From: Octopus vulgaris
Lineage: Eukaryota
Reading direction: 5' to 3'
NCBI GenBank assembly: GCA_951406725.2
Contig: OX597814.1
Span: forward strand, 39,308,001-39,372,000
DNA: 64,000 nucleotides
Shown here: in pieces, positions 12,801 to 13,420 of the stretch
Numbering within the stretch: the first letter of the stretch is position 1
Layout of the letters: every line of letters starts with the position of its first letter
Made by a program: the position numbers and the translations under genes
Notes under the pieces: model-generated
Databases searched by the model: none
The model's input: the letters and a program-made list of their open reading frames with translations, nothing else
Told to the model about the DNA's origin: nothing

Positions 12801-12950
12801 GGGGCTTGGATTTTTTGTGTGTGTTAGTGGCAGCAATGTGGGGAATTGGTGCACTGGGGTAATAGCATAGGATGGTGTTGAGTGATGGCTAGAATGTTTT
12901 TGTGTATCTCTTTTGCCATGTTCAACATGGCTAAAAAAGAATTTTCCTGC
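9819..12950 (-). CDS. LINE ORF2: AP-endonuclease + reverse transcriptase (open frame from 12950; first ATG only at 12338)
   Basis: APE motifs [35 protein letters not shown] motifs [43 protein letters not shown]1-like tail [20 protein letters not shown]. Confidence 0.95.
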
Positions 12951-13420
12951 TTAGGGAGCAGTTTTTGGCTGGAGGTGTGGTTGCACTGTTGGATAGGGTT
13001 GTAGTTTCCACTTTTGTTGTTGTTGTTTTTGTGTCTTCCTGAAAAGACTGGACCAGCATTACTGCAGCATGGTGTGTTTCTATTTTTATTGTTATTCAGG
13101 TTTGTGTGTTGGCTTGAGGCCCCGTTTCTGTTTGTGCGTCGGGTCCCTGGAAGATGAGTGAAGGGACAGTCACTCAGTAGACATGTTCTCTCACGTTGGG
13201 AATACCGGCAGATTTTGGGACTCCGAGTTGTGTGTGTTTTGAATTTCGATTTACTCTTTGGTGGTGTTGATGTTATTGTGGGATGCGTGCTTTGGCCTTG
13301 GCCAGTAGTGCGTCTAGTGCCGGGTAGATGCGTGAAGATGCAGTCACTATTTGTGCAGAGTCTCTGGCGCAGTGAATAGCGGCATATTTGGGGATTTCTT
13401 GTTTGTGCCGTGAGGGGCAC
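12824..13420 (-). CDS. LINE ORF1 C-terminal part with two CCCH-type zinc fingers
   Basis: [19 protein letters not shown] and [19 protein letters not shown] (C-x8-C-x4-C-x3-H), each followed by LPGTRR; the YI-repeat N-terminus of the track ORF is a (TA)n artefact. Confidence 0.75.

Follow-up and report, generated by a model that had tools for sequence, protein, structure and literature searches.

The window analysed here is a stretch of 64,000 nucleotides of Octopus vulgaris DNA, and it carries two copies of one LINE family that are ~ 81% identical to each other. The features of the two copies are as follows, with coordinates counted from the first letter of the window.

13420 to ~9735, minus strand: copy 1, an ORF1 remnant and an intact ORF2
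12824..13420, minus strand: 3' remnant of ORF1 in this 5'-truncated copy, ~199 codons, stop at 12826-12824
13328..13384, minus strand: CCCH-type finger 1 of ORF1, by pattern match and a weak Pfam match
13154..13210, minus strand: CCCH-type finger 2 of ORF1, by pattern match, aligning with the last finger of the relatives
9819..12950, minus strand: ORF2, an intact frame of 1043 codons that opens after the TAA at 12953-12951
~61 codons, minus strand: low-complexity linker of ORF2, between the region where the frame opens and the endonuclease
~12755-12096, minus strand: AP endonuclease of ORF2 (Pfam Exo_endo_phos_2, E=6e-14)
~11204-10476, minus strand: reverse transcriptase of ORF2 (Pfam RVT_1, E=1.7e-29)
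9735..9818, minus strand: short 3' UTR that closes with a repeated 8-nt unit (two copies) and is followed by (TA)n
35239 to ~38945, plus strand: copy 2, decayed, delimited by nucleotide comparison with copy 1

With an AP endonuclease followed by a non-LTR reverse transcriptase (RT) in ORF2, dispersed 5'-truncated copies and a simple-repeat 3' end, the element has the organisation of an APE-type LINE. The solved structure closest to copy 1 ORF2 is that of human L1 ORF2p (E 1e-21), and no Pfam match to an RNase H was found in the copy 1 protein. Elements of the CR1 group typically lack RNase H and have a short 3' UTR that ends in short tandem repeats instead of poly(A); the window element shows both this type of 3' end and the missing RNase H, and tandem 3' ends are also seen in the relatives L002, L003 and L015. 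We take the element to be CR1-like from its familiar motifs and its tandem-repeat end, the tree described below being made of unnamed loci alone. (TA)n sequence is found on both flanks of copy 1 (13421-13840 and 9520-9734) and on the 3' flank of copy 2 (38945-39126), possibly because the copies inserted into TA microsatellites or have a tail of the TA type; the 3' end of L002 is (GT)n.

The ORF1 remnant, whose 5' edge adjoins the TA microsatellite, reads as two CCCH-type fingers, a low-complexity linker, a Phe-Leu (FL) pair, a helix-like segment that begins at this pair, and the stop. The zf-CCCH_2 match (E=0.003) falls short of the curated Pfam cut-off. A tandem array of two to three CCCH-type fingers is present in the window (13420-13154) and in the ORF1s of L001, L003, L004, L007-L009, L013-L017 and L082, and in L003 PHD fingers are located farther upstream of the CCCH fingers. 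A search with the ORF1 remnant as query found no longer proteins, and the ESM Atlas matches of the L013 ORF1 are unnamed zf-CCCH clusters alone. The CR1 lineage of the Jockey superfamily as described by Metcalfe and Casane (PMC4120745) shares with the window element the APE and RT domains of ORF2, a variable ORF1 (PHD in the relative L003) and a short tandem-repeat 3' UTR. Unlike the window ORF1, however, none of the ORF1 types in the accessible text of that paper has a tandem CCCH array, and the term "CCCH" does not occur there. Overall, the window element is best explained, as judged from its sequence, as a CR1-like LINE of young age, whose ORF1 is of the PHD/CCCH type and whose AP-endonuclease/RT ORF2 would have no usable start codon.

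The junction between the two frames was next considered, since an earlier note on this DNA had proposed that ORF1 and ORF2 are joined by -1 ribosomal frameshifting. Its features are the following.

12951..12953, minus strand: TAA at which the ORF2 (-1) frame closes, four codons upstream of the proposed slippery site and kept in copy 2
12932..12938, minus strand: heptamer T_TTT_TTA, the proposed -1 frameshift site, read as Ser-Phe-Leu in ORF1
12824..12950, minus strand: ORF1/ORF2 overlap of 127 nt, both frames coding by frame comparison
12336..12338, minus strand: first in-frame ATG of ORF2, within the endonuclease and just ahead of the GDFN motif
35743..35764, plus strand: upstream TAA and T_TTT_TTA of copy 2 (heptamer at 35758-35764), identical to copy 1

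ORF2 lies in the -1 frame relative to ORF1, and at the junction ORF1 reads AAT TCT TTT TTA GCC, which places T_TTT_TTA in the X_XXY_YYZ phase. The TAA, the -1 offset, the 127-nt overlap and the phased heptamer had all been given by the earlier note, and every coordinate is right, as is the retention of the heptamer and the upstream TAA in copy 2. The note was equally correct in placing the first ATG of ORF2 at 12338, which is residue 205 of the stop-to-stop frame and residue 173 of the 1011-aa ORF counted from the GTG at 12854, downstream of the LLNAQG, TETHL and YRPP motifs. Being inside the endonuclease, this ATG comes too late for an intact enzyme. On the other hand, a phased heptamer is present in about one in five (20%) of 127-nt ORF2 stretches in that phase; a single one is thus not beyond chance, and its significance has to come from the relatives.

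Read contigs from 4 runs of 4 studies, among 20 listed runs containing the stretch, none of them recorded as RNA, were compared with the window. The dominant contigs of the four runs differ from it by 1 to 3 letters with no listed indel at the site, and hence the -1 offset is neither specific to this copy nor an assembly error. Furthermore, these contigs extend 5' of 13418 with non-TA sequence that is common to four loose ends, by 626 nt in one case and 953 nt in another, so that there must be a young, longer family arranged in this way. In runs X17 and X3 a second subfamily, ~ 82% identical, is present over window positions 12539-12769, and no in-frame ATG occurs in the 30 loose letters that precede the start of its endonuclease.

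Relatives were collected from two sources. An endonuclease alignment used as query gave metagenome loci, of which the best 80 of 453 confirmed matches were taken from 24 of the 64 parts of one collection, and an ORF2 alignment gave 36 further contigs from prokaryote genome bins (L081-L116), which are animal-type LINE contigs and presumably represent host contamination. No relatives were found among the viral contigs scanned. After removal of 19 loci without an endonuclease match, 10 open at a contig edge and 9 broken inside the endonuclease, 78 of the 116 loci were left and were placed with the window in a tree (quick search). Removing 7 near-identical partners gave 71 loci plus the window, that is 72 non-redundant entries, 7 of which have too little upstream DNA to be classed.

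The window element falls into a clade of 19 rows with an SH-aLRT support of 99. A long ORF1 in -1 overlap with ORF2 is found in 18/19 of these rows and the exact phased T_TTT_TTA in 15/19. The other heptamers are T_TTT_TTG in L059, G_GAT_TTT in L001 and A_AAA_AAC in L082, and L012 is uninterpretable, its ORF1 being broken or cut and no site being present. Across these relatives a phased heptamer and the -1 overlap are retained and no ORF2 AUG is conserved, although the pairwise endonuclease identity of the 17 rows with an FL site ranges from 25 to 80% with a median of 31%. In a plain alignment of 16 ORF1 proteins the FL pair (F162 and L163) gives the sole invariant columns, from which it follows that the slippery sites of the relatives are homologous.

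Given this alignment, the heptamer could simply reflect a Phe-Leu motif conserved in the ORF1 protein, or the offset could be a mutation of copy 1. Indeed, FL starts a conserved helix-like segment, of the two frames below the site it is ORF1 that is better conserved in 6/6 close pairs, and overlaps commonly hold one phased heptamer. The codons were therefore compared, in the 17 clade rows with x-Phe-Leu, with the expectation from the codon use of each element and the observed amino acids. The whole heptamer is observed in 15/17 rows against 0.44 expected, and in 11/12 against 0.28 after collapsing close pairs; by position, X is T in 17/17 (7.0 expected), the Phe codon is TTT in 17/17 (7.8 expected) and the Leu codon is TTA in 15/17 (2.2 expected), with the reservation that clade rows share ancestry and P values are overstated. 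The X position is T under six different amino acids, namely Ser, Asn, Thr, Ala, His and Asp. As a control, 45 conserved endonuclease columns were taken from these rows. The share of the commonest codon does not exceed 75% in any of them and is 53-67% in Phe columns and 24-36% in Leu columns, and these mixed codons imply that synonymous sites have reached saturation at this depth. The base profile agrees, showing free variation up to position -1, fixed bases from X through +7, and decay beyond. The site is therefore conserved beyond the need of the protein, and the codon test excludes a mere Phe-Leu protein motif. The same offset in copy 2, in the four runs and in 17 relatives likewise contradicts a copy-specific mutation, which leaves chance as a practically negligible explanation.

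The third frame contains 3 to 11 stops in each of 18 elements. The ORF2 frame opens 0 to 12 codons above the site and extends over 61 to 218 codons to the endonuclease, with an ORF2-frame stop 0 to 36 nt above the site in all 16 rows with a T-run. When ORF1 codons were randomised synonymously, the -1 frame was open with P between 0.001 and 0.39 per element. No ATG is found ahead of the endonuclease in 11/16 rows and the other five have one at scattered places; in L008, L014 and L059 an in-frame ATG stands right at the endonuclease start. The site thus combines a zero-frame X_XXY_YYZ with a downstream -1 ORF that is open from the site and has no start of its own, as canonical -1 signals do.

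An independent start of ORF2, either by termination-reinitiation of the SART1/L1 type or at a non-AUG codon, with the T-run in some other RNA-level role, has to be weighed here because it is the route that has been studied in L1 and SART1 (PMC5009743; PMC3894237; PMC10275272). According to the accessible parts of these papers, unconventional initiation is preferred for mammalian L1, human L1 has an inter-ORF spacer and AUG-independent ORF2 initiation (PMC5009743), and SART1 ORF2 is reached by reinitiation at a UAAUG stop-start (PMC10275272; PMC3894237). Like these elements, the window element would have a two-ORF RNA with an APE and RT ORF2 made at a low level, but its two frames share 127 nt and there is no stop-start. 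The linker of the window does contain GTG and CTG codons, and in a subclade of nine rows (L005, L007-L011, L013, L014 and L017) the ORF1 stop is fixed at one position, at the first endonuclease motif (9/9), which could be read in favour of such a start. Across the clade, however, no AUG or CUG/GUG/ACG position ahead of the endonuclease is conserved, L002 and L017 being without any, and the ORF1 stop varies from -71 to +1 relative to the endonuclease Asn motif, lying 71 nt above it in the window. Hence an ORF1 stop that overlaps or precedes a conserved ORF2 start, as in SART1 or L1, is not found in the clade. An independent start would also leave unexplained the -1 frame that is open up to the heptamer and the exchange among known slippery heptamers, and we regard it as very unlikely. 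In the same L005-L017 subclade ORF1 is open through the whole linker (9/9), giving 70 to 108 codons that are coding in both frames.

The fixed phase, the opening of the ORF2 frame at the site and the close upstream stop would also be accounted for if the site were a 3' splice acceptor, in cis or in trans, so that ORF2 is made from spliced RNA joined in a fixed phase. Indeed, TTTTTTAG, the heptamer with the next base, is present in 15/16 rows, an AG follows the T-run in 15/16 and the G is there in 16/16. This G is, however, accounted for by a Glu codon in 14/16 rows, and neither the pyrimidine tract nor the AG-free zone of an acceptor is seen: the 14 nt upstream are purine-rich (pyrimidine fraction 0.38 vs 0.47 locally), another AG lies within them in 14/18, and the run comprises exactly six T and is free of C. 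Moreover, the nearest AG is in another phase in L059 and L001, L082 has no T-run, and the distant sites A_AAA_AAC and T_TTA_AAC are no acceptors. The dominant contigs, of putative RNA, pass unspliced through the site with no joint and no listed loose end there, as far as contigs that drop rare forms can tell and with 16 loose ends standing outside those listed. Under cis-preference an element's own RNA, spliced or edited, would be the one copied back; spliced copies would thus be predicted, but the two copies in the window, like the 17 relatives that have a site, are all unspliced. A splice acceptor is accordingly a highly improbable reading of the site.

The invariant homopolymer of six T brings in another process at the RNA level, in which RNA polymerase slips on T6 and adds one U, since a gain of one base would join ORF1 to ORF2. 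Non-homopolymer variants of the site (G_GAT_TTT, T_TTA_AAC and G_GAA_AAC) exist, however, and A is conserved as the seventh base. In 16/16 T-run rows the number of T is exactly six, where cis-preference would have copied back the edited RNA, and none of the four sequencing runs, whose contigs drop rare variants, has a base insertion listed at the site. Slippage of the polymerase is extremely unlikely in view of these points. Frameshifting by the ribosome is the preferred reading. When the RNA around the site was folded, two predicted structures were seen to share the region.

12907..12940, minus strand: long hairpin, containing the 12931-12915 hairpin and pairing the U-run, -16 kcal/mol, z -5.4 in a window picked after seeing the fold
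12876..12927, minus strand: competing stem, weak candidate 3' stimulator with a 4-nt spacer, -10.2 kcal/mol, z -2.6 to -3.0

The long hairpin is impossible with a ribosome on the site, because the U-run itself is paired and the ribosome would melt it. The short hairpin at 12931-12915 had been put forward as the frameshift stimulator; it is present, abuts the heptamer as had been observed, and is lost in copy 2, but a classical stimulator is set off by a spacer that is absent here, and in this role the hairpin is not supported. The stem at 12927-12876, with its 4-nt spacer, is a better candidate, and the 3' arm of the abutting hairpin can alternatively join it. Over 12940-12876 there are consequently two mutually exclusive folds with a shared arm, one a hairpin hiding the site and the other a downstream stem that could form only after the hairpin has melted, and it is possible that together they act as a switch. 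The figures for the stem depend on the window used, with z -3.6 in the clade folding scan and z -1.0 in an 82-nt window; its rank in the rank scan is an unremarkable 0.37, and in copy 2 it is nearly lost (-3.1 kcal/mol).

Among 18 clade members, the 60 nt that follow a 5-nt spacer have a mean folding z of -1.28, with 5 members below -2 and 13/18 not below it, as compared with means of -0.29 to +0.43 at five other offsets and -0.64 for 15 distant sites. A stem at the top rank of its region is found in 6/19 rows, with clear stems in L010, L013 and L016. Covariation was counted between L013 and L017, leaving aside the alignment of L016 with L059, and amounts to one compensatory pair, which is not significant (261/500 shuffles). 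A 3' stem seems modestly enriched in the clade, as far as predicted folds without pseudoknots go, and it is not one conserved structure. Long-distance pairing of the region after the site with the 3' end of the element was also considered. The 3' windows rank 1 to 6 of ~ 150 in six complete elements, but the effect is gone against other queries from these elements (fractions of 0.06-0.74 for helices and 0.21-0.87 for duplexes), and this pairing is not supported.

The earlier note had also offered G_GAA_AAU (12947-12941) as an alternative heptamer. Its 9-nt distance to the hairpin is as described, but all 17 relatives that carry a site lack G_GAA_AAU at this position, and in L013, L015 and L017 the ORF2-frame stop touches the T-run heptamer. 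It was consequently discarded as a shift site.

In light of these results, the earlier proposal that -1 frameshifting at U_UUU_UUA yields an ORF1-ORF2 fusion passes the computable checks that came with it and finds support in the relatives and in conservation at the nucleotide level, and we consider it very probable from comparative sequence data. On reaching U_UUU_UUA, a ribosome translating ORF1 would hold tRNA-Phe in its P site and tRNA-Leu in its A site, and tandem slippage would move a minority of ribosomes back by one base into the -1 frame. The shifted ribosomes would make a single chain, comparable to Gag-Pol, from ORF1 through the zinc fingers, the 61-codon low-complexity linker, endonuclease and RT, and this fusion may be the active RT. 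The majority would complete ORF1 with its C-terminal amphipathic helix and, in relatives, a Q/P-rich tail, both of which would be missing from the fusion.

The heptamers seen in the clade and at the distant sites include known shift sites of other systems: U_UUU_UUA in HIV, G_GAU_UUU in pea enation mosaic virus, A_AAA_AAC and U_UUA_AAC are all named as such in the accessible part of a large frameshifting review (PMC5009743). HIV-1 gag-pol in particular has the same heptamer in the same phase with G as the next base (PMC5009743), and in both systems an upstream nucleic-acid-binding zinc-finger protein is fused, in the window element putatively, to an AUG-less frame that bears the RT. Unlike HIV-1, the window element is a non-LTR element with an AP endonuclease and with CCCH instead of CCHC fingers, and no single conserved stem-loop at 6 to 9 nt was found in its clade. 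It has no protease, so that the fusion would not obviously be processed.

The contrast drawn in the earlier note between this element and LINEs that reinitiate is valid for L1 and SART1 but incomplete, since the Dictyostelium elements TRE5-A and TRE3-A are stated, in a figure legend of a review (PMC5911963), to need a -1 frameshift for ORF2 translation. The accessible text of this review gives no slippery site or experiment for the two elements, and that of PMC5006619 adds nothing further on the TRE frameshift. They resemble the window element as APE-type non-LTR elements with a -1 frameshift for ORF2, which in the window element is a proposed one, but they are amoebozoan, target tRNA genes and carry a C-terminal zinc finger in ORF2, whereas the window element is an animal-type CR1-like LINE. 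Other cases in the sources seen in part are Paramecium LINE groups 1-2, for which, unlike here, a +1 frameshift or reinitiation was proposed from a consensus only (PMC5405496), and Drosophila HeT-A, in which the frameshift is inside gag (PMC5009743) and, unlike here, there is no RT. In the accessible parts of the sources, no LINE ORF1-ORF2 case was found in PMC5009743, "frameshift" has no occurrence in the CR1-related PMC13343379, PMC11203168 and PMC4120745, and PMC11835228 mentions it for retroviruses alone. A search of openly accessible articles gave no report of a conserved slippery site in CR1-group LINEs. What would be new here is that animal-type LINEs of a broad group use -1 frameshifting of the retroviral type, for which there is strong comparative evidence.

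Across the 72 loci, a canonical heptamer in phase within the overlap is found in 32 of the 37 with a long ORF1 in -1 overlap, compared with 6/37 and 11/37 in the other two phases. The five without it are L001 and L061, which have G_GAT_TTT, L023, which has G_GAA_AAC, and L057 and L087, in which nothing clear was seen. A phased heptamer is present in 0/10 loci with a +1 overlap, in 8/18 without a long ORF1, where the search regions are longer, and in 1/7 with little upstream DNA; between 32/37 and 8/28 the difference has a Fisher p of 2e-6, to be read knowing that rows share ancestry. The distant sites are mostly A_AAA_AAC, with T_TTT_TTA also seen, and T_TTA_AAC near the ORF1 stop, and they include loci with esterase-type ORF1s (L021 and L060). 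We lean towards a wider reading of these data, in which -1 frameshifting would be ancient and common among two-ORF CR1-group LINEs as a means to express ORF2, kept through exchanges of the ORF1 type (CCCH/PHD, esterase and others) by a few heptamers (U_UUU_UUA, A_AAA_AAC and U_UUA_AAC as well as G_GAU_UUU); the active RT would then be a fusion without the ORF1 C-terminal helix, and annotated ORF2 starts would be wrong.

The translation of LINE ORF2 has been called an open and important question, with stop-start, reinitiation, IRES and 2A routes discussed (accessible text of PMC3894237), and frameshifting may explain how the second gene is translated in many LINEs. If so, many animal LINEs would set the ratio of ORF1 to RT as retroviruses do, and the RNA-binding domains of ORF1 would be part of the RT itself, which may offer a route to cis-preference and particle assembly. 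Such LINEs would also respond to host factors acting on -1 frameshifting, and ORF2 annotations in CR1-group families would begin at the wrong place.

Some loci of the tree show other arrangements. The sister loci L023 and L030 both have G_GAA_AAC in phase inside the overlap. In two small clades (L088, L091 and L095; L037 and L052) ORF2 is in a +1 arrangement with no -1 heptamer, and L037, L052, L091 and L095 have no ATG ahead of the endonuclease; these clades may use another recoding route. L036 and L073 are also classed as +1, but L073 has A_AAA_AAC in the ORF1 frame and L036 resembles its -1 sister loci minus one A; both may be damaged -1 elements.

Elsewhere in the window no tRNA genes were found. 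A protein fragment with the motif HQWL...GFILAAQDQ...ETIDHL...C is encoded at 33409-33780 on the minus strand, beside an (ATT)n run, and presumably belongs to a different retroelement-like protein. A dispersed repeat family of up to ~ 600 bp has several copies (24406-25027, 39085-39339, 41062-41635 and 58458-59136), and an inverted pair of 317 bp at 8521-8837 and 63667-63983 is 88% identical.
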